Numbered from the stretch's first letter, positions 56,996 to 63,831 are shown. The stretch: DNA of 64,000 nt from Desulfarculaceae bacterium (GCA_037443445.1 JBBIOJ010000001.1:183796-247795), one strand, 5' to 3'. Translations and numbers: made by a program. Notes: generated by a model not told the origin, from the letters alone.

Positions 56996-57294
56996 GGTGT
57001 CCTCCTTGCTGCGGTTTGTGGTGGTGGCCAATTCTTGTGAGTCTGTGTCCACCCGCTGCGTTGCTTGAAGTTTATTCCATATACGGGAATTTGACCCTGT
57101 TTGTCAAATCTAATTCTGGGAATCGTCACTTCCTTGGCGCAGATCCCAAACCGGCAGGGTCTTGGAGCTGATTCTCCCCGGCCAGCCAACCCCCCTTTTG
57201 TCCTCTGGCTGGCTCAGTGAGCCTTGCCTTTGACTCAAGCCAGGCTCAGTGCTGAGAGGCCCACCAAAGGCGCCCCAATGGCATGTGTTCAAAA

Positions 57295-57308
57295 TTACCA
57301 AATGGTAA
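57295..57308. promoter_or_regulatory. Dyad TTACCA-aa-TGGTAA, candidate transcription-factor/enhancer site
   Basis: 6-bp perfect inverted arms in the divergent intergenic region, 130 bp upstream of a sigma54 promoter. Confidence 0.4.
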
Positions 57309-57438
57309 CTCTTTCCTGCTTTCTAAATTGTTTGGGCTTTCCTGACCTGGAATTTTCTAAATCCCCTTTTTCTCGTAATGCGGGCCATTTCCTTGAGCTT
57401 CTTCTCTCAATGGGCTTCCAGGGAGTCCCTCGTGAAAC

Positions 57439-57454
57439 TGGCATGTTCGTTGCT
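57439..57454 (+). promoter_or_regulatory. sigma54 (-24/-12) promoter
   Basis: TGGCAT-GTTCG-TTGCT matches TGGCAC-N5-TTGCW, about 50 bp before ATG 57503. Confidence 0.65.
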
Positions 57455-57502
57455 TGTCATCTACACCAGGATGAAACTCCACTGGTTGGGAGGGACTCGA
57501 GC

Positions 57503-57811
57503 ATGAGAAGGGTCAGACTTCAGAGGATAGTCCAGAGTGGAACAGAGGAGTTCGTGACCCTGGGGACCCCCTTTGAAGGCTTGGAGCCTCTGAAGCCCAG
57601 AGCCGGCCAGGAATACCTCCTTTTCGAGGACTCGGGCAAGGTGGTGCGCACATCCCCGGTGGTAAGGCTGCACGAGGGCTTTATTGAAACCCAGAACTCC
57701 TTTTACAAACTCACGGTCTTGGAGGAAGAACCCTTTGATCTGGCCGGAGAGGAACCCCCTGGAAAGACCCAGGAAATCCGTCTCCCCAAGCTGGCCGCCA
57801 ACTCTCGTTAG
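57503..57811 (+). CDS. Hypothetical protein (102 aa)
   Basis: GGGAGG RBS; beta-rich ...VVRTSPVV...FIETQNSFYKL; acidic C-terminal tail. Confidence 0.6.
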   Translation: MRRVRLQRIVQSGTEEFVTLGTPFEGLEPLKPRAGQEYLLFEDSGKVVRTSPVVRLHEGFIETQNSFYKLTVLEEEPFDLAGEEPPGKTQEIRLPKLAANSR

Positions 57812-58078
57812 AGCTTTCCCTGCCAGGAGCCCTTGGGGCCCTCTCCTTACCCTGGGGAGGAGCGAGCCGGGGCCTCAATCTCCTGGAGGGCGCCTCATAC
57901 CCGATCCCCCAAAAACCATTGGCAGGAAACCCAGAAGACTTGGGCAATTCAGGCAAGCCTGCCGATTCTTTGACTGCATCAGCTAAGCTGCAGGCCGCCT
58001 CAAGGTCTGAGGATTTGCCCCCCGAGAGCTCCTCTGAGTATCATAGGGGAAACTTCCCACTCACGGAGACGTGTTGCC

Positions 58079-59020
58079 ATGGAGGTGCAATCGCTGGCTG
58101 AGTTTGCTGGGATAAGGAAGATCAAGTTGTTCCTGGCTCTTTCCAGGACCCCTCATGGGCTCCTGGACATGGCCAGCCCGGCCCTGGGAGCGCTACTGGC
58201 CCTGGGCTCTTTTCCCCCGGGTCGGGTCATCCTTCTGGGACTGCTCACCGCCTTTGCCGGCTACACTGCCGTGTACGCCCTGAACGATCTTGTGGACTAC
58301 AGAAGCGACATAGAGAAGCTGGGCAGAATGAGGAAGGCCCCAGGGGGGTGCAGAGACGTGGATGCGGTCTTCATGAGACACCCCATGGCCCAGGGCTTGA
58401 TCTCGGTGCCCCAGGCCGTGGCCTGGACCTCGGGATGGGCTATGGTGGCAGCTCTGGGGGCTTATTCCCTGAGGCCCGTGTGTGCCGCTGTTTTCCTGGC
58501 TGCCTGCTGTCTGGAGGCCGTGTATTGCGCCATGTTGAAGGTGAGCTACCTCCGTACCCTTGTGAGCGGCTTGGTGAAAACTTCGGGCGCCTTGGCCGCT
58601 GTGCTGGCAGTGGATCCGGAGCCTGAGCCTTTTTTTGTGGCTCACCTTTTCACCTGGCTTTTCCTTTGGGAAATAGGGGGGCAGAATGTTCCCAACGACT
58701 GGTCTGACCTGCAAGAGGACGAATCCCTCAGGGCCAGGACCCTCCCGGTGGAGTTGGGTCCGAAGAAGGCTGCCTGGGTGGTCATGCTCTCCTTGTGCCT
58801 TTCCACGTTGCTGGGAGTCTGGCTTTACTGGAGCACGCCCTGGAAGCTCAGCCCTGTTTTCCCCTTGGGGGCCATGGGGGCAGGGTGGTTCTTGCTGGTT
58901 AGGCCCTCAGCCAGGCTCTTCAAGGAACGCAGCCTGGAGGCTGCAGGCCGTCTTTTCAATAGGGCCAGCTACTATCCCCTGGCCATCTTGGCATCCATGC
59001 TTGGGGCAATGATCTATTGA
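58079..59020 (+). CDS. UbiA-family membrane prenyltransferase
   Basis: Asp-rich YALNDLVDYRSD and NDWSDLQED..RARTLP motifs; about 8 TMs. Confidence 0.88.
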   Translation: MEVQSLAEFAGIRKIKLFLALSRTPHGLLDMASPALGALLALGSFPPGRVILLGLLTAFAGYTAVYALNDLVDYRSDIEKLGRMRKAPGGCRDVDAVFMRHPMAQGLISVPQAVAWTSGWAMVAALGAYSLRPVCAAVFLAACCLEAVYCAMLKVSYLRTLVSGLVKTSGALAAVLAVDPEPEPFFVAHLFTWLFLWEIGGQNVPNDWSDLQEDESLRARTLPVELGPKKAAWVVMLSLCLSTLLGVWLYWSTPWKLSPVFPLGAMGAGWFLLVRPSARLFKERSLEAAGRLFNRASYYPLAILASMLGAMIY

Positions 59021-59047
59021 TCTAAATTCACTTCTCAGGCCAGAGCC

Positions 59048-59656
59048 TCAGGTCTGCCCAACTGGACGCTGGGCCACCCCCAAGATCCCCAACAAGGGAT
59101 GCTCCAGGGCCCTCTGGAGCACCAGACCGCTGGCCCCGAGGGCTTCACGCCAAGAGCCTTCCTCAAAGCGGTCCTCTTGGGGGTGAAGCAGGATCCTCCT
59201 TGTCAGGAAATTGGCGTACAAGGCCGGGTAGAGTTCCTCCAGGAAATAAAAGCCTCCGGGTCTCAGCACCCTGGCCACCTCTTGCAGGGCCACCCTCCAG
59301 GGGCCAACGTGGTGCATGACGCCGAAGCCGAAGACTGCATCAAAGCTCCCTGAAGCATAGGGAAGGTGCGCGGCATCCGCCACAGCCAGCCTTACCCCGG
59401 GGCGTCTTCCCGGACCGGGATACCTCCAGCACCTCCTGAGCATGGAGAGATCCAGGTCAGTGAGGTGGATGCTGCCCGGGGCGAATTCCCCCAGGAGCTG
59501 CCTGGCTCCGGCCCCGCGGCCGCCGCCGATTTCCAGGACCAGGGCCCCCTTGGGGAAATCCTTTGCTGTGCGCCGCATCCACCTTATCTCCCAGGCCTGT
59601 TGGATCACCCGCAGGGGATTGTTAACTGCCCAGCGCTCGGCCCAGTTCAGTTTCAT
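59048..59656 (-). CDS. Class I SAM-dependent methyltransferase
   Basis: VLEIGGGRG, D....M, ADAAHLPY..SFDAV, HHV, RVLRPGG; ATGA overlap with ubiE. Confidence 0.85.
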   Translation of the reverse strand: MKLNWAERWAVNNPLRVIQQAWEIRWMRRTAKDFPKGALVLEIGGGRGAGARQLLGEFAPGSIHLTDLDLSMLRRCWRYPGPGRRPGVRLAVADAAHLPYASGSFDAVFGFGVMHHVGPWRVALQEVARVLRPGGFYFLEELYPALYANFLTRRILLHPQEDRFEEGSWREALGASGLVLQRALEHPLLGILGVAQRPVGQT

Positions 59657-60471
59657 CCGGGTTTTTTCCCCATGTGGATCACGGCTATCCCATCTGTGAG
59701 CCTCCTGTAGCGGACCCCTTGGAAGCCGATTTCCTCCAAGAGGCCTGCCAGCTCCTGGGGCCCTGGGAATACCCTGATGGATTCCGGAAGATAGGTGTAG
59801 GCCTGCCTCGAGCCCGCAAGAAGCCTGCCCAGGCCCGGCATCACGTGAAAGGAATAGAAATCGTAAAGCCTCCTGAACCAGGCTGTGCAAGGAGTGGAGA
59901 ACTCCAGACAGACCATTGTGCCCCCTGCTCTGAGCACCCTGAACAACTCCCTGAAGCCCTCCTCCATCCTGCTGAGGTTCCTGATGCCGAAGGCCACGAT
60001 GGCCGCGTCAAAGACTCCTTGCCTTGCAGCCAGCTGCTCCGCGTCCCCTTGCACCATGCTAACCACCTTGGTTTGCCCTGCCCTGGTCAACTTCCTCCTG
60101 CCTTGCTCCATCATTGCAAGGTTCATGTCGTAAAGTACCACCAGGCCCCGGGGCCCCACCTCTTTGGCTGCCAGAAGTGCCATGTCACCGGTCCCGCCGC
60201 AGAGGTCCAAGACCCTGTGGCCTGGCCTGAGCCCCAAGGCCTTTATGGCCCTTTTTTTCCACAACAGGTGGGCCCCAAGGCTCAAGAGGGTGTTCATGAA
60301 ATCGTACTTGCGGGCCACTTTGTCAAAGTGAAGCGAAACCAGCTTCCTTTTTTCGGGCAAGCTCACGAGCCTGTAGCCGAAGTGCACCTTGGCCTCCTCT
60401 TCCCTGCTCTCCCGAACATGAGCTTGCGGCTCCTCTGCCCTGCCTTGCTCCGGATCCTTCACTGGGGCCAT
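59653..60471 (-). CDS. ubiE: UbiE/MenG-family quinone C-methyltransferase
   Basis: F..VA.KYD.MN..LS.G.H..WK, LDLCGGTGD, GDAE.L, AFGIRN, RVL..GG...CLEFS, Y.YL.ESI..FP. Confidence 0.9.
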   Translation of the reverse strand: MAPVKDPEQGRAEEPQAHVRESREEEAKVHFGYRLVSLPEKRKLVSLHFDKVARKYDFMNTLLSLGAHLLWKKRAIKALGLRPGHRVLDLCGGTGDMALLAAKEVGPRGLVVLYDMNLAMMEQGRRKLTRAGQTKVVSMVQGDAEQLAARQGVFDAAIVAFGIRNLSRMEEGFRELFRVLRAGGTMVCLEFSTPCTAWFRRLYDFYSFHVMPGLGRLLAGSRQAYTYLPESIRVFPGPQELAGLLEEIGFQGVRYRRLTDGIAVIHMGKKPG

Positions 60472-61301
60472 CCCACCTCCTCCAGGATCGGCCTCAGGTA
60501 TGCCAATCCCTTGCTGCCGGCCTCATCGGGCATGTCCACGTACGGGTAGAGCTCCAGACTCATGTCTCCCTTGTAACCCAGTTTGGCTGCCCTTCGAATC
60601 AGGGACCTCAGGTCCATGGCGCCAAGACCAGGGATCATGTGCCTGTGTTCCCTGCTGGAGCCTATGTCCTCCAGGTGCATGTGGCCTATCCATGCGAAGA
60701 GCTCTTCCATGGCCTCCACAGGATCCTGCCCCACGCAGAAGAAGTGCCCTGCATCGAAATTAAGACCCACCATGGTGGAGGAGACCGACCGGATGAACTG
60801 CCTGAACTGGCGGGTGTTCTCCAGCAGAAGCCCTGGCTCCGGCTCCACCAGCAGGCGCACTCCCAGCTCTTCGGCCAAAAACACCACTTCCTCCACACCC
60901 TGGAGGAAGAGCCGCATGGCCTGGCCTCGGCCCATGCCCTTGAGGGGCCCGCCGGGGGGCACCGAGATGTTGGGACACCCGAGGGCTGCGGCTGCCCGCA
61001 AGGAGGCCTTGGTATGCTCTATCCTGATGCGCCTCAAAGAAGCATCGGTCTCGATCCAGGAAGGCAGGTACGTGTCCCCCACTGCAAAAAGGGTGAAACT
61101 GTTGAGGTTGGTCACCTTAAGATTCTTCTCTTGCAGGAGCTGCCTGAGCCTGGCCAGTTCTTCTTCCGCGAAATCAGGGGGGTAAAGGTGGGGCCTGTCC
61201 CCCATGATCTCTATACCCCGGAAGCCCAGCTGGCTTATCCGCCTGACAGCCTCCCAAATATTAAAGCGGGTGTATGCGTTGGTGCTATAACCCAGTATCA
61301 C
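60459..61301 (-). CDS. Sugar-phosphate isomerase/epimerase (xylose-isomerase-like TIM barrel, IolE/AP-endonuclease-2 clan)
   Basis: GF.GIE, LLVEPEPG, NFDAGH, HMHLED...R.H...PG.G.MD, E(LY). Confidence 0.85.
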   Translation of the reverse strand: MILGYSTNAYTRFNIWEAVRRISQLGFRGIEIMGDRPHLYPPDFAEEELARLRQLLQEKNLKVTNLNSFTLFAVGDTYLPSWIETDASLRRIRIEHTKASLRAAAALGCPNISVPPGGPLKGMGRGQAMRLFLQGVEEVVFLAEELGVRLLVEPEPGLLLENTRQFRQFIRSVSSTMVGLNFDAGHFFCVGQDPVEAMEELFAWIGHMHLEDIGSSREHRHMIPGLGAMDLRSLIRRAAKLGYKGDMSLELYPYVDMPDEAGSKGLAYLRPILEEVGWPQ

Positions 61302-62463
61302 CCAAGTCTCCTTCCATGCCCAATTGCCTCTCCAAGCGCCTAAGGGCCGTTAATTGTTCCTCAAAGGTCTTGGGGGCCCCCTCGCCCAGAGGTCTCTTGA
61401 AATAAAAACCCAGCTCCGGGATCAGACCCGACCTGCCTAGCCTCTTGAGACACACCATCCAGCCTGCCAGGTCCAGCACCAGGGGAGCTGCCAGGATGGA
61501 GTCCCTTGCCATGAGGTTGACCCTGAGGCTCATGGGCAGATCAAAGACTCCCGAAAAATCAACCACGTCCCAGGCTTCCTTGGCGTCCCCCCTGGGGGGG
61601 TAGTATGCAATGTGCACCCCGTGGCTGGATTCTCCCGGGGCCTGCCCCACAGGGTAGCCCAGCACTTCCTCCAGGACCTGTGTCTTGTTGGCCAGCTTGG
61701 AAGCTGCCCTGGAAGGATCCGAGAGGTTCTTGCCGTCCTGGTTCCCCAGGATGTTGAGGCTGTACCAGCCCATCACCTTGAGCTTCCTGACCTTGAGGGC
61801 AGAGGCCAGAACCACCTTGAAAAAAGTCTGGCCTGTTTTCCCGTCCCTCCCGCACATGGGCACCCCTGTTCGGGAAGCTTCCTGCAGGAGCAAGGGGTGT
61901 TCCACCTGGTTGGAGGTGAAGTTCACAAAGGGCACCCCGCAGCGAAGGGCAGCTGCTGCGTAGGCCAGATCCGCGGGGAGCTCGCCGTTGCCCCTGGCCA
62001 GCAGCTCCTCCAGAGACCCACAGTTGAAAAAACCAGGAGTTGCCGAGGCTGGAAGCAGGTCCACCATCACGGCGGTTGCTCCGGGATGCTCTGCAAGCAG
62101 TTCCATTATCTGGGAGCTCAGCACCTCGGTTTGCTCCAGGAGAGGCCCCTGGGGAGCCCTGAGCACCTTCATGCCCTTCAAGTGCTCCTGGAGGGGCAGC
62201 CACTGCCTTTCAGTGAGCACCTTGTTGATTCTGAGTGCTTCCAACAGGCTTTCTTCCCTGGAGTCCCAACCTGCGAAGCTCATGCACATGCTTCCCAAGG
62301 CTCCAAGAAGGCTCTCCGAGATGGTCAGCCAGGGAAGAACCTCTGCGGGATTCTTCCAGAAGGCCGCCACCAGCGCTGCTACTGTGCTGCCCACAGCCCC
62401 CTTGGCCCCTGCCGCCAGCAGGAGGATAGGGGTTCCTGGGGTCTCTTTCCCCTTGCCGTGCAT
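61285..62463 (-). CDS. ino1: myo-inositol-1(3)-phosphate synthase family protein
   Basis: GAKGAVGST Rossmann variant, FAGWD, YAAAAL..GVPFVNFT, GRDGKTGQT..K, NILGN.DG..L.DP....SK, ARDSILAAPLVLDL, FYFK.P. Confidence 0.85.
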   Translation of the reverse strand: MHGKGKETPGTPILLLAAGAKGAVGSTVAALVAAFWKNPAEVLPWLTISESLLGALGSMCMSFAGWDSREESLLEALRINKVLTERQWLPLQEHLKGMKVLRAPQGPLLEQTEVLSSQIMELLAEHPGATAVMVDLLPASATPGFFNCGSLEELLARGNGELPADLAYAAAALRCGVPFVNFTSNQVEHPLLLQEASRTGVPMCGRDGKTGQTFFKVVLASALKVRKLKVMGWYSLNILGNQDGKNLSDPSRAASKLANKTQVLEEVLGYPVGQAPGESSHGVHIAYYPPRGDAKEAWDVVDFSGVFDLPMSLRVNLMARDSILAAPLVLDLAGWMVCLKRLGRSGLIPELGFYFKRPLGEGAPKTFEEQLTALRRLERQLGMEGDLGDTGL

Positions 62464-62467
62464 GTTT

Positions 62468-63742
62468 TCAGAACTCCTTGTGGAAGAGCGCCACCCGGTT
62501 GCTGTTGGTCCCCTTCTTGAGGTTCTCAACGCCCCAGATGTTGGAGGTCTTGGTGAAACTCTGCAGGTTCACAACCACTCCCACGCACTGGAAGCCGGCC
62601 TGCAGGCCCAGGGGCACTATTTCCTCGTCCAGGTTCAAGGAGCCGCCCCTGACCTCCCCCACTTCAAAAGCCACCCAGCCCCCGGGCCTGGTGAGCCTGT
62701 GGAGCTCCTTGAGGGTTTCTCCCATGACCCCGCACCACCTAAAAAGGCTCGAAGTCTGGGTGATGGAGGCCTCCACCCGCTTCTGGTCTATTCCATTGAA
62801 CCAGCACCTGAGCCAATTGTCATCCCCGTATTGCACCACGTCCAAGAAAGGCGGGGAGGTCACGGTGAGCTGCACCGAGTCAGAGGCCACCTCGGGGGTG
62901 CACCTGGCGTCCCTGCACAGGAAAAGGGCCCCTTCCCCGGCCTTTCGAAGGGCCTGGATCTGCCGCTGGCTCATTCTACCCAGGAGGCGGCGGCTCTTGG
63001 TGAGGATTATCTCCCTGGTGTTCCTGTACGGGGGAACCTGGCCCAGCCTAAGGTTTATCTCCTTCTGCCTCTGTGGGGATACGGCCTGGTTGGGCGGAAG
63101 AGTATACACCGAAAAGAAGCCCTTGGAATGCCCGGTGAGGCGGTTTGTGGCCACCATCCTGATCCACCTGTCCACATCATCCTCCTCCCCGGAGGCCTTC
63201 CTGTGCATCAGGTACTGGCGCAAGGATACGATTTCTGCCTCTGTCCTGGGATGGAAAAACATGCTCAGGTCCAGATCGGCCCTGGCCCCCTCCTGTATGG
63301 TTATTTCCCCCAGCCTGCGGGCCACGTCCTTGAGCTCGGGTACCTTCAGGCGAGGCATGGTAAGGATCTGGCTCAGGGGGTTTATGTCGTTGGATATCAC
63401 CTGCCTTGCGCAAAGGGCTGTCTCCACCGCAGTGGTGCCCCTGCCCGAGAAGGGATCGTAGACCACCTGGCCGGGCAGTGAGAGCAACTCTATGAAGAAA
63501 CGAGGCAGCTGGGGTTTGAAACAGGCCCTGTAGGATATCTCGTGGATGGAAGCGGCCTGCCTCTGCTTGGAGGACCAAAACTCGTTCACATACCTTGGGA
63601 TCTGTACCGAGCCCACATTGAAGCTCTCCACCTTGGTGACCGCTCCAACGGCAGGGAAAAGGCTTGTGCGGCAAGCCGCGGAGTAGCTCTCCAGGTAGGA
63701 CCTCAGCCTCTCCCCACTGGGAGGCTGGTGAAAAAAAACCAT
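62468..63742 (-). CDS. Orphan DNA amino-methyltransferase (N4-C/N6-A, alpha-type motif order)
   Basis: YDPFSGRGTT (motif I), NDINP, later LTVTSPPF (motif IV); no adjacent endonuclease in the window. Confidence 0.75.
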   Translation of the reverse strand: MVFFHQPPSGERLRSYLESYSAACRTSLFPAVGAVTKVESFNVGSVQIPRYVNEFWSSKQRQAASIHEISYRACFKPQLPRFFIELLSLPGQVVYDPFSGRGTTAVETALCARQVISNDINPLSQILTMPRLKVPELKDVARRLGEITIQEGARADLDLSMFFHPRTEAEIVSLRQYLMHRKASGEEDDVDRWIRMVATNRLTGHSKGFFSVYTLPPNQAVSPQRQKEINLRLGQVPPYRNTREIILTKSRRLLGRMSQRQIQALRKAGEGALFLCRDARCTPEVASDSVQLTVTSPPFLDVVQYGDDNWLRCWFNGIDQKRVEASITQTSSLFRWCGVMGETLKELHRLTRPGGWVAFEVGEVRGGSLNLDEEIVPLGLQAGFQCVGVVVNLQSFTKTSNIWGVENLKKGTNSNRVALFHKEF

Positions 63743-63795: not shown

Positions 63796-63831
63796 AGTAT
63801 AGGTTTTCCTTGCCTTCAAGTCAAGGCAAGG
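63796..63831 (-). promoter_or_regulatory. sigma70 promoter for the MTase-ino1 operon with a 9-bp inverted repeat over the -35 box
   Basis: TTGACT(63824-63819)-17 bp-TATACT(63801-63796); IR CCTTGCCTT(63808-63816)/AAGGCAAGG(63823-63831). Confidence 0.6.

Follow-up and report, generated by a model that had tools for sequence, protein, structure and literature searches.

What is made by a cyclase of the MIPS (inositol-phosphate synthase) family, a xylose-isomerase-like TIM barrel, two methyltransferases and a UbiA-family prenyltransferase whose genes lie side by side in a bacterial genome? The question is posed by positions 58079-62463 of a 64,000-nucleotide (nt) stretch of DNA from a Desulfarculaceae bacterium (GCA_037443445.1, JBBIOJ010000001.1:183796-247795), the whole of which we call the window. 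On the minus strand, a MIPS-like gene (61285-62463, 392 amino acids (aa)) is followed by the TIM-barrel gene (TIM; 60459-61301, 280 aa), a UbiE/COQ5 family C-methyltransferase gene (59653-60471, 272 aa) and a gene for a class I S-adenosylmethionine methyltransferase, denoted MT2 (59048-59656, 202 aa), with overlaps of 17, 13 and 4 nt; MT2 converges, across a gap of 27 nt, with the plus-strand UbiA-family gene, denoted UbiA-like (58079-59020, 313 aa). Gene calls and Pfam matches bear out the five genes, positions, overlaps and convergence given in a first-pass annotation of the window. As the product, that annotation proposed a prenylated and/or methylated inositol derivative or a quinone-like molecule; the quinone-like product is now favoured, and the inositol-lipid version is retained only as an improbable rival. 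The answer that we tentatively prefer is that the cluster may encode a pathway to a methylated prenyl-benzoquinone, a second quinone beside menaquinone, whose ring would be derived from a sugar phosphate independently of oxygen.

The genes have stayed together in related bacteria. Among 80 MIPS-like loci taken from genomes sampled one per species, 67 include at least 3.5 kb of downstream sequence; in 66 of these, TIM comes next; UbiE follows TIM in 20, and MT2 and UbiA-like are present in 9 and 8, respectively. Represented among them, at ~50% identity, are Desulfarculaceae, Desulfomonilia, Syntrophales, Desulfobacterales and one metagenome-assembled genome (MAG) labelled Bacteriovoracaceae, and the complete set is seen again at this level of identity in Desulfomonilia, Syntrophales and further lineages. 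The six-gene layout is also present in relatives with MIPS-like proteins 63-73% identical to that of the window (L001, L015), and the closest related locus belongs to a Desulfarculaceae MAG. Because the layout recurs in relatives and its core in other orders at ~50% identity, the gene arrangement is not due to chance. Thus, the suggestion that a cyclitol-type synthase, a TIM barrel, a UbiA-family enzyme and methyltransferases form a conserved functional unit holds when the neighbourhoods of relatives are compared, whereas the alternative suggestion that the inositol genes are separate fails, given their linkage to UbiE, MT2 and UbiA-like in these relatives.

The same genes also tend to occur in the same genomes. 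In an evenly drawn sample of 251 genomes of the Desulfobacterota (Thermodesulfobacteriota), the phylum to which homologue names and related loci assign this genome, MIPS-like is found in 10, UbiA-like in 25, MT2 in 21, true UbiG (at least 225 bits) in 19, and a protein combining a cytochrome-b5/MAPR-like domain with DUF2231 in 37. MT2 is present in 17 of the 25 UbiA-like genomes, and the DUF2231 protein in 22; the co-occurrence of UbiA-like with MT2 has a p value of 6e-17, and the presence of MT2 or UbiG in all ten MIPS-like genomes one of 4e-9 (Fisher test), both uncorrected for phylogeny. At the level of families, the association between UbiA-like and MIPS-like persists (4/6 vs 11/91 families, p 0.0016). 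UbiA-like was found somewhere in 44 of 50 further genomes chosen for the presence of MIPS-like and TIM, compared with the 25 of 251 in the phylum sample; in one apparent absence (G126), the contig begins inside MT2.

UbiA-like belongs to the UbiA superfamily, as indicated by the PF01040 match (94 bits), two Asp-rich motifs, NDxxDYxxD and NxxNDxxDxxxD, which are invariant across the family, and an all-helical membrane fold (model pLDDT 82) that, among solved structures, most resembles DGGGP synthase, AfUbiA and ApUbiA (6M31, 4TQ4, 4OD4). None of the 15 family members tested reaches the cut-off of a named NCBIfam subfamily (UbiA, MqnP, MenA, DGGGPS, ChlG and CtaB); UbiA-like itself stays far below, its best subfamily score being 55 bits against a cut-off of 269 (PRK12884). 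A sequence search of solved structures gave no match at E 0.01, and a profile search marginal matches only. By sequence, UbiA-like is therefore placed in an orphan clade of the UbiA family.

The host genome (assembly of 3.97 Mb, 99.9% complete) contains two UbiA-family genes, UbiA-like and an MqnP-like gene on contig C34 that scores 282-334 bits on MqnP and related models and lies immediately after a gene for a UbiD decarboxylase. A search for the mqn pathway elsewhere in the genome, as the first-pass annotation had recommended, was successful: apart from MqnP-like and UbiD, the futalosine pathway genes outside the cluster include two PF02621 members (MqnA/MqnD) and the futalosine hydrolase MqnB (TIGR03664, 128 bits vs a cut-off of 124.7). 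The gene content thus predicts that this bacterium makes menaquinone through the futalosine pathway, and because MqnP-like with UbiD and the other Mqn genes lie elsewhere, UbiA-like would not be needed for it. Hence the scenario in which UbiA-like and UbiE are the only menaquinone enzymes of the genome, with MIPS-like and TIM unlinked in relatives, does not apply: there is an MqnP-like gene elsewhere, and the linkage is conserved. A role of UbiA-like as the menaquinone prenyltransferase was rejected on the same grounds, all UbiA-like genomes having an MqnP- or MenA-type gene. Also rejected was a divergent haem O synthase serving neighbouring oxidases, given that the window protein matches no cyoE or ctaB model; the haem-copper oxidase of this genome appears to be of the cbb3 type, to judge by its sequence and a neighbouring open reading frame (ORF) for a c-type cytochrome, and cbb3 oxidases are not known to need haem O. 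The genes for this oxidase adjoin those for alternative complex III (ActB, C, D and F; C21:53142-61136), and cytochrome bd is encoded as well (C6:10744-13166), in a lineage that is usually regarded as strictly anaerobic.

UbiE, unlike UbiA-like, matches established models. The PF01209 match is full length (238 bits, profile positions 9-233 of 233), and the protein exceeds the cut-offs of TIGR01934 (241.9 vs 158) and NF001244 (217.2 vs 216); its top match is MpqE (266 bits), and the MpqE and bifunctional-UbiE models outscore MenG. No other full-length UbiE/MenG is encoded in the genome, the runner-up being ArsM, an arsenite methyltransferase, and UbiE therefore very probably also methylates demethylmenaquinone. 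Accordingly, of the proposal that UbiA and UbiE simply complete menaquinone, the part on UbiE stands and the part on UbiA does not. In a maximum likelihood tree of 56 sequences (bootstrap not converged), the window UbiE and all cluster-linked UbiEs fall into one long-stemmed clade with a support of 94/100, apart from the common MenG type; the clade also includes the UbiEs of small UbiG-bearing genomes. Three genomes (G197, G055 and G248) have a second UbiE copy, which lies outside the clade, as does MenG in most of the other families. Two-copy genomes thus retain a separate MenG-type gene elsewhere, whereas many single-copy genomes without UbiA-like have only the cluster-type UbiE, so that, in such lineages, this type also serves as a housekeeping menaquinone methyltransferase. 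The idea that the cluster-type UbiE is a specialised paralogue could consequently be upheld only in part. Just 3' of MqnP-like and UbiD there is a class-I-methyltransferase-like ORF with no NCBIfam match (C34:28081-28818); this ORF might methylate menaquinone in place of the window UbiE, which would then be available for another role.

MT2 (Methyltransf_11, 65 bits) is, judged by its sequence, probably an O-methyltransferase. Of the 21 genomes with MT2 in the phylum sample, 17 have UbiA-like, and the three UbiA-like genomes with true UbiG all lack MT2, which suggests that MT2 and UbiG perform the same role. We know of no role of UbiG beyond ubiquinone-type O-methylation, and of none in menaquinone synthesis. 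The clusters with UbiG are especially telling for the nature of the module. In G225, a MIPS-like-TIM-UbiG-UbiE operon is present, with UbiG scoring 244 bits on TIGR01983 (cut-off 103). In G248, a 566-aa ORF located 4 nt 3' of UbiA-like (L105:6107-7807, minus strand, contig C72) encodes a UbiE-UbiG fusion, with UbiE in residues 62-293 (254-297 bits) and UbiG in residues 328-545 (290 bits), and adjoins the complex I genes nuoC-H. In G197 (L111:6508-12924, contig C3), TIM, a dehydroquinate-synthase-like (DHQS-like) cyclase, UbiG, UbiA-like and UbiB are encoded together and flanked by cydAB; here, UbiG scores 261 bits against the cut-off of 103, the TIM is 53% identical to that of the window, and the DHQS-like cyclase (PRK06203, 552 bits) replaces MIPS. 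Over all loci, the respiratory neighbours are alternative complex III with a haem-copper oxidase in five, cydAB in three, including a cydAB-MIPS-TIM-UbiE-MT2 array in L045, UbiB in two, and sdhAB-fumC in L115. The clusters lack UbiC, a dedicated UbiD/X and hydroxylases of the UbiH/I/F or UbiU/V/T types.

Of the 19 UbiG genomes, 16 lack UbiA-like; they are mostly small (1.8-3.3 Mb), belong to eight families and probably represent the classical O2-independent ubiquinone lineage described in a 2026 survey (PMC13386864).

Two further genes recur beside UbiA-like. One encodes the b5/MAPR-DUF2231 protein, of ~240 aa, with an N-terminal cytochrome-b5/MAPR-like domain, a DUF2231 membrane domain and a conserved RRHPHPxxVHFP motif; of 51 loci, 25 have it next to UbiA-like and in the same orientation (e.g. 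L019:10166-10894 and L128:8933-9646), and the genome under study encodes it outside the window (C4:26602-27393). Conceivable roles for this protein are those of a redox partner or a hydroxylase. In-frame TGA flags had raised the possibility of selenocysteine in these proteins, which was dismissed as the flagged stop is the natural C-terminal stop in both genes inspected. The other recurrent gene, for a class II fumarase-like (Lyase_1) protein, stands directly 5' of UbiA-like in 11 loci (e.g. L115:4883-9936 and L128:6119-7525), and on the contig labelled Syntrophobacter fumaroxidans (L115) the order is sdhA-sdhB-fumC-UbiA-like; this neighbour was set aside as conserved synteny with tricarboxylic acid cycle genes.

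The two remaining genes are those proposed to provide the ring. MIPS-like, the sole MIPS homologue in its genome, matches PF01658 (104.6 bits) and PF07994 (72.2 bits), both above their cut-offs, as well as PDB entry 7NWR (220 bits in a profile search). Its N-terminus, which reads ...LLLAAGAKGAVGST..., contains the GAKGAVGST sequence noted in the first-pass annotation. All catalytic residues of the A. fulgidus MIPS (D225, N255, L257, K274, K278, K306, D332 and K367) are retained, the matching residues D207, N237, L239, K256, K260, K295, D321 and K356 being invariant in the alignment. However, the protein lies outside the curated equivalog TIGR03450 (31.6 bits vs a cut-off of 638). It represents a short-N-domain subfamily, in which the N-terminal domain is ~50 residues shorter than in 7NWR, and this subfamily is large, with more than 2,000 database clusters scored. 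On this evidence, MIPS-like is classified as a MIPS-family NAD-dependent sugar-phosphate cyclase. In two genomes of one family (G077 and G171; L180:6214-9142 and L182:7656-10693), a pair of TIM-barrel paralogues in tandem lies behind the gene for a different MIPS subtype (~405-413 aa), and UbiA-like, MT2 and DUF2231 genes are located elsewhere in the genome.

TIM (PF01261, 138 bits) was modelled with a pLDDT of 92, and its best Foldseek match is the inosose dehydratase IolE, with ketose/sugar-phosphate 3-epimerases, UlaE, Art22, SCO6571 and IolI as further top matches, all at E of about 1e-15; sequence matches include AsbF and IolI. These top-ranking enzymes all enolise beside a carbonyl, so the substrate of TIM would be a keto-sugar or keto-cyclitol. 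The modelled fold indicates that TIM probably enolises a keto-cyclitol with the aid of a metal, as a dehydratase, epimerase or isomerase would; the fold fits epimerisation as well as dehydration and does not discriminate between them.

From these assignments, a pathway can be sketched. MIPS-like would form a carbocycle of the inosose or inositol type by cyclising a hexose phosphate, in the simplest case glucose 6-phosphate; TIM, as an IolE-like enolising metalloenzyme, would dehydrate a keto-cyclitol, which would then aromatise to a tri- or tetrahydroxybenzene. UbiA-like would add a polyprenyl chain to this ring, MT2 would O-methylate a ring hydroxyl, as UbiG would in the sister clusters, and UbiE would C-methylate the ring in addition to the demethylmenaquinone of the futalosine pathway. 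All the chemistry in this scheme, including the substrate, the aromatisation and the identity of the product, is inferred from comparative genomics. Because a sugar phosphate rather than chorismate would be the source of the ring, O2-dependent ring hydroxylation would not be needed, and a sugar-derived ring that is oxygenated from the start would explain the hydroxylase-free clusters.

The components of this scheme are not equally secure. It is probable that the module of UbiA-like, UbiE and MT2 or UbiG makes a ubiquinone-like benzoquinone, in view of the UbiG-UbiE fusion behind UbiA-like, the exchange of MT2 and UbiG, the occasional UbiB and the respiratory neighbours. The balance tilts towards MIPS-like and TIM acting in the same pathway as this module and, if they do, it is quite likely that they supply the ring, as argued by the translational coupling to UbiE and MT2, the co-occurrence, and the swap of the cyclase beside the same TIM. 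Because the sub-claims share evidence, we give the complete scheme more credence than their product as independent claims would allow, while holding it to be somewhat short of an even chance.

Several observations weigh against this scheme. Both MIPS-like and TIM are missing from whole families of UbiA-like genomes, roughly one half of the total, so that the ring can come from elsewhere and the pair is at best one of several suppliers. The intact catalytic residues imply that the product of MIPS-like may simply be inositol 3-phosphate, which has no carbonyl for a TIM-barrel dehydratase, and neither a dehydrogenase nor a phosphatase gene is found within the cluster. Profile and fold place UbiA-like marginally closer to enzymes that O-prenylate (DGGGP synthase and chlorophyll synthase) than to prenyltransferases acting on 4-hydroxybenzoate, and the closest solved relatives of MT2 are sugar O-methyltransferases (37 bits). 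The need for menaquinone alone explains the presence of UbiE as the only MenG-type gene of the genome, the support of 94 for the UbiE clade comes from a bootstrap that has not converged, and part of the strength of the co-occurrence statistics is due to shared ancestry. Orthologues of UbiG and UbiB are absent from this genome, ring hydroxylases not having been searched genome-wide. Finally, a 2026 survey of 26,264 genomes describes the Desulfobacterota as menaquinone producers, except for the class GWC2-55-46, with no quinone other than menaquinone on record for the lineages discussed here (PMC13386864).

Some of these facts would be accommodated if the prenyltransferase module made a benzoquinone lipid from a conventional aromatic, 4-hydroxybenzoate or another phenol, and MIPS-like and TIM made a separate, co-regulated cyclitol, for example one that acts as a solute or protectant under stress, possibly oxygen stress. 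Most MIPS-like/TIM pairs indeed stand alone as two genes, some of them beside genes for peroxiredoxin, thioredoxin or rubrerythrin, and the intact MIPS residues and the UbiA-like genomes devoid of the pair point in the same direction. Two independent products are, however, hard to square with the translational coupling to UbiE and MT2, the G225 operon, the 44 of 50 co-occurrence, and the MT2 or UbiG found in every MIPS-like genome; furthermore, the same TIM is combined with a different carbocycle-forming enzyme in the cluster with UbiG, UbiA-like and UbiB, and the clusters hold no hydroxylase candidates for a 4-hydroxybenzoate route. We consider this explanation rather unlikely. If, instead, a methylated cyclitol phosphate were turned into a prenyl ether serving as a membrane lipid or as a carrier, UbiA-like would O-prenylate inositol phosphate in the way that DGGGP synthase modifies glycerol phosphate, MT2 would O-methylate the cyclitol, TIM would epimerise it, and UbiE would be a neighbouring menaquinone methyltransferase. 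The nearest folds and profiles of UbiA-like, the nearest relatives of MT2, the intact MIPS and the equal closeness of TIM to epimerases and dehydratases would all agree with such a lipid. Yet the similarity to O-prenylating enzymes is marginal throughout (36-55 bits vs cut-offs above 260), and UbiG, a catechol-type quinol O-methyltransferase, substitutes for MT2 in three genomes, in one of which it forms a fusion with UbiE next to UbiA-like; with UbiB adjacent in two loci and MIPS missing from half of the UbiA-like genomes, this possibility appears improbable.

It is also conceivable that all the quinone-related genes serve menaquinone, UbiE being MenG, with UbiA-like and MT2 tailoring it or duplicating steps and the inositol genes unrelated. 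A sole UbiE/MenG in a genome with the futalosine pathway would agree with this, and cultured relatives have been reported to contain menaquinones (PMC13386864). Prenylation is already covered by MqnP-like beside UbiD, though, and by an MqnP- or MenA-type gene in all UbiA-like genomes; UbiG, while having no menaquinone role, is fused to UbiE beside UbiA-like; two-copy genomes keep a separate MenG-type gene; and MIPS-like and TIM show conserved linkage and co-occurrence. Menaquinone as the only product is thus quite improbable. The benzoquinone with a sugar-derived ring remains, for these reasons, the interpretation that we prefer.

A fifth minus-strand gene, for an N6/N4 DNA-methylase-like protein (62468-63742, 424 aa; PF01555, 49 bits), ends 4 nt before the start of MIPS-like and is the first gene on the operon strand; there is no endonuclease gene nearby. 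It was rejected as a pathway member, being kept only in close relatives (L001, L002 and L015) and in 1 of the 67 surveyed loci. The sole good promoter-like match 5' of the minus-strand genes precedes this ORF (63796-63824, minus strand; TTGACT-17-TATACT, 10 of 12 positions) and is a possible start of the minus-strand transcript; a second match lies 5' of UbiA-like (58015-58044, plus strand; TTGCCC-18-TATCAT, 9 of 12 positions). Both are sigma-70-like by consensus match only, and for the one 5' of UbiA-like, shuffled sequences are expected to give 0.8 matches per region. Between a gene for an amino-acid-binding protein and UbiA-like, there is a plus-strand ORF of 195 aa without a Pfam match (57224-57811). 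The stretch is contained in 7 of 11 public sequencing runs, from hot-spring and sediment metagenomes; none of the 11 is labelled RNA.

In its broadest form, the proposal would be that many "strictly anaerobic" Desulfobacterota make a high-potential ubiquinone-like quinone from a ring built from hexose phosphate, a third, shikimate- and O2-independent origin of such rings, and feed it to cytochrome bd and to alternative complex III with cbb3 oxidases. Such a generalisation is doubtful at present. If true, it would reveal a new biochemical way for anaerobes to gain higher-potential quinones, would help explain how oxygen is dealt with by sulfate reducers that have cytochrome bd, alternative complex III and cbb3 oxidases, and would bear on the debate over when high-potential quinones arose (PMC11874023, PMC13386864). 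Even on a cautious reading, the orphan UbiA clade, which has thousands of members in databases, makes up a large uncharacterised module together with MT2, the b5/MAPR-DUF2231 protein and the MIPS-like/TIM pair.

Among known systems, one named in the first-pass annotation is the ebo cluster (eboA-F; Yurchenko et al. 2016, PMC5133447). Both combine an enzyme that forms a carbocycle from a sugar phosphate with a xylose-isomerase-like TIM barrel and a UbiA-family prenyltransferase. Nevertheless, the label "ebo-like" is justified as an analogy only, as the proteins are not orthologous. TIM scores 26.9 bits on the EboE model NF035939 (cut-off 250), and its G197 homologue 31 bits; UbiA-like has no named subfamily, and no EboC-named model is among the NCBIfam matches of the 15 members, the presence of such a model in the library being unverified. 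The cyclase here is of the MIPS family, whereas EboD is DHQS-like, and a DHQS-like cyclase, of the PRK06203 type, takes the place of MIPS-like only in G197. EboA, EboB (TatD) and EboF (phosphodiesterase), like EboD, are absent: the window neighbours are the DNA-methylase-like ORF, the ORF without a Pfam match and the amino-acid-binding protein, and the EboA, EboB and EboF families are not recurrent around the 51 UbiA-like loci. Conversely, the ebo cluster has no counterpart of UbiE and the O-methyltransferase (MT2 or UbiG).

The cluster also resembles the ubiquinone, plastoquinone and methyl-plastoquinone pathways with their UbiA, UbiE, UbiG and UbiB enzymes (Elling et al. 2025, PMC11874023): UbiE is nearest to UbiE/MpqE, the prenyltransferase is a membrane enzyme of the UbiA family, UbiG and UbiB appear in sister clusters, and quinol oxidases are neighbours. 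The differences are that the prenyltransferase belongs to an orphan clade and not to UbiA, MpqA or PlqA, and that a MIPS- or DHQS-like cyclase with TIM stands where ring supply and hydroxylation would be. In the Desulfobacterota, ubiquinone has been reported only for GWC2-55-46, with classical ubi genes and UbiTUV (PMC13386864). With IolE, IolI and AsbF, TIM shares the AP_endonuc_2 barrel and probably metal-dependent enolisation beside a ring carbonyl, but it is only 16-20% identical to them and lies in an anabolic operon with methyltransferases and no IolG-type dehydrogenase. The archaeal DGGGP synthase (6M31, 7BPU) is the closest solved fold to UbiA-like (TM 0.73/0.81); the identity is 15%, however, the NCBIfam DGGGPS models give 33-36 bits against cut-offs of ~300 to 350, and UbiA-like occurs in the context of quinone enzymes and not of ether-lipid genes.

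Full-text literature searches returned no description of this gene combination. To our knowledge, the rings of all known isoprenoid quinones come from chorismate-derived aromatics, and those of the ubiquinone type need O2-dependent hydroxylases or the UbiU/V/T system. The nearest chemical precedent is chemo-enzymatic: the Frost and Kakinuma laboratories reportedly converted glucose, via inosose or 2-deoxy-scyllo-inosose (DOI), to polyhydroxybenzenes. By that route, dehydration of the product of MIPS or of DOI synthase gives a tetra- or trihydroxybenzene, which is the type of ring that we envisage, and we know of no natural quinone pathway that uses a route of this kind. The cluster would thus add a variant to isoprenoid-quinone-type biosynthesis and, should the sugar-derived ring be confirmed, a categorically new route to it.

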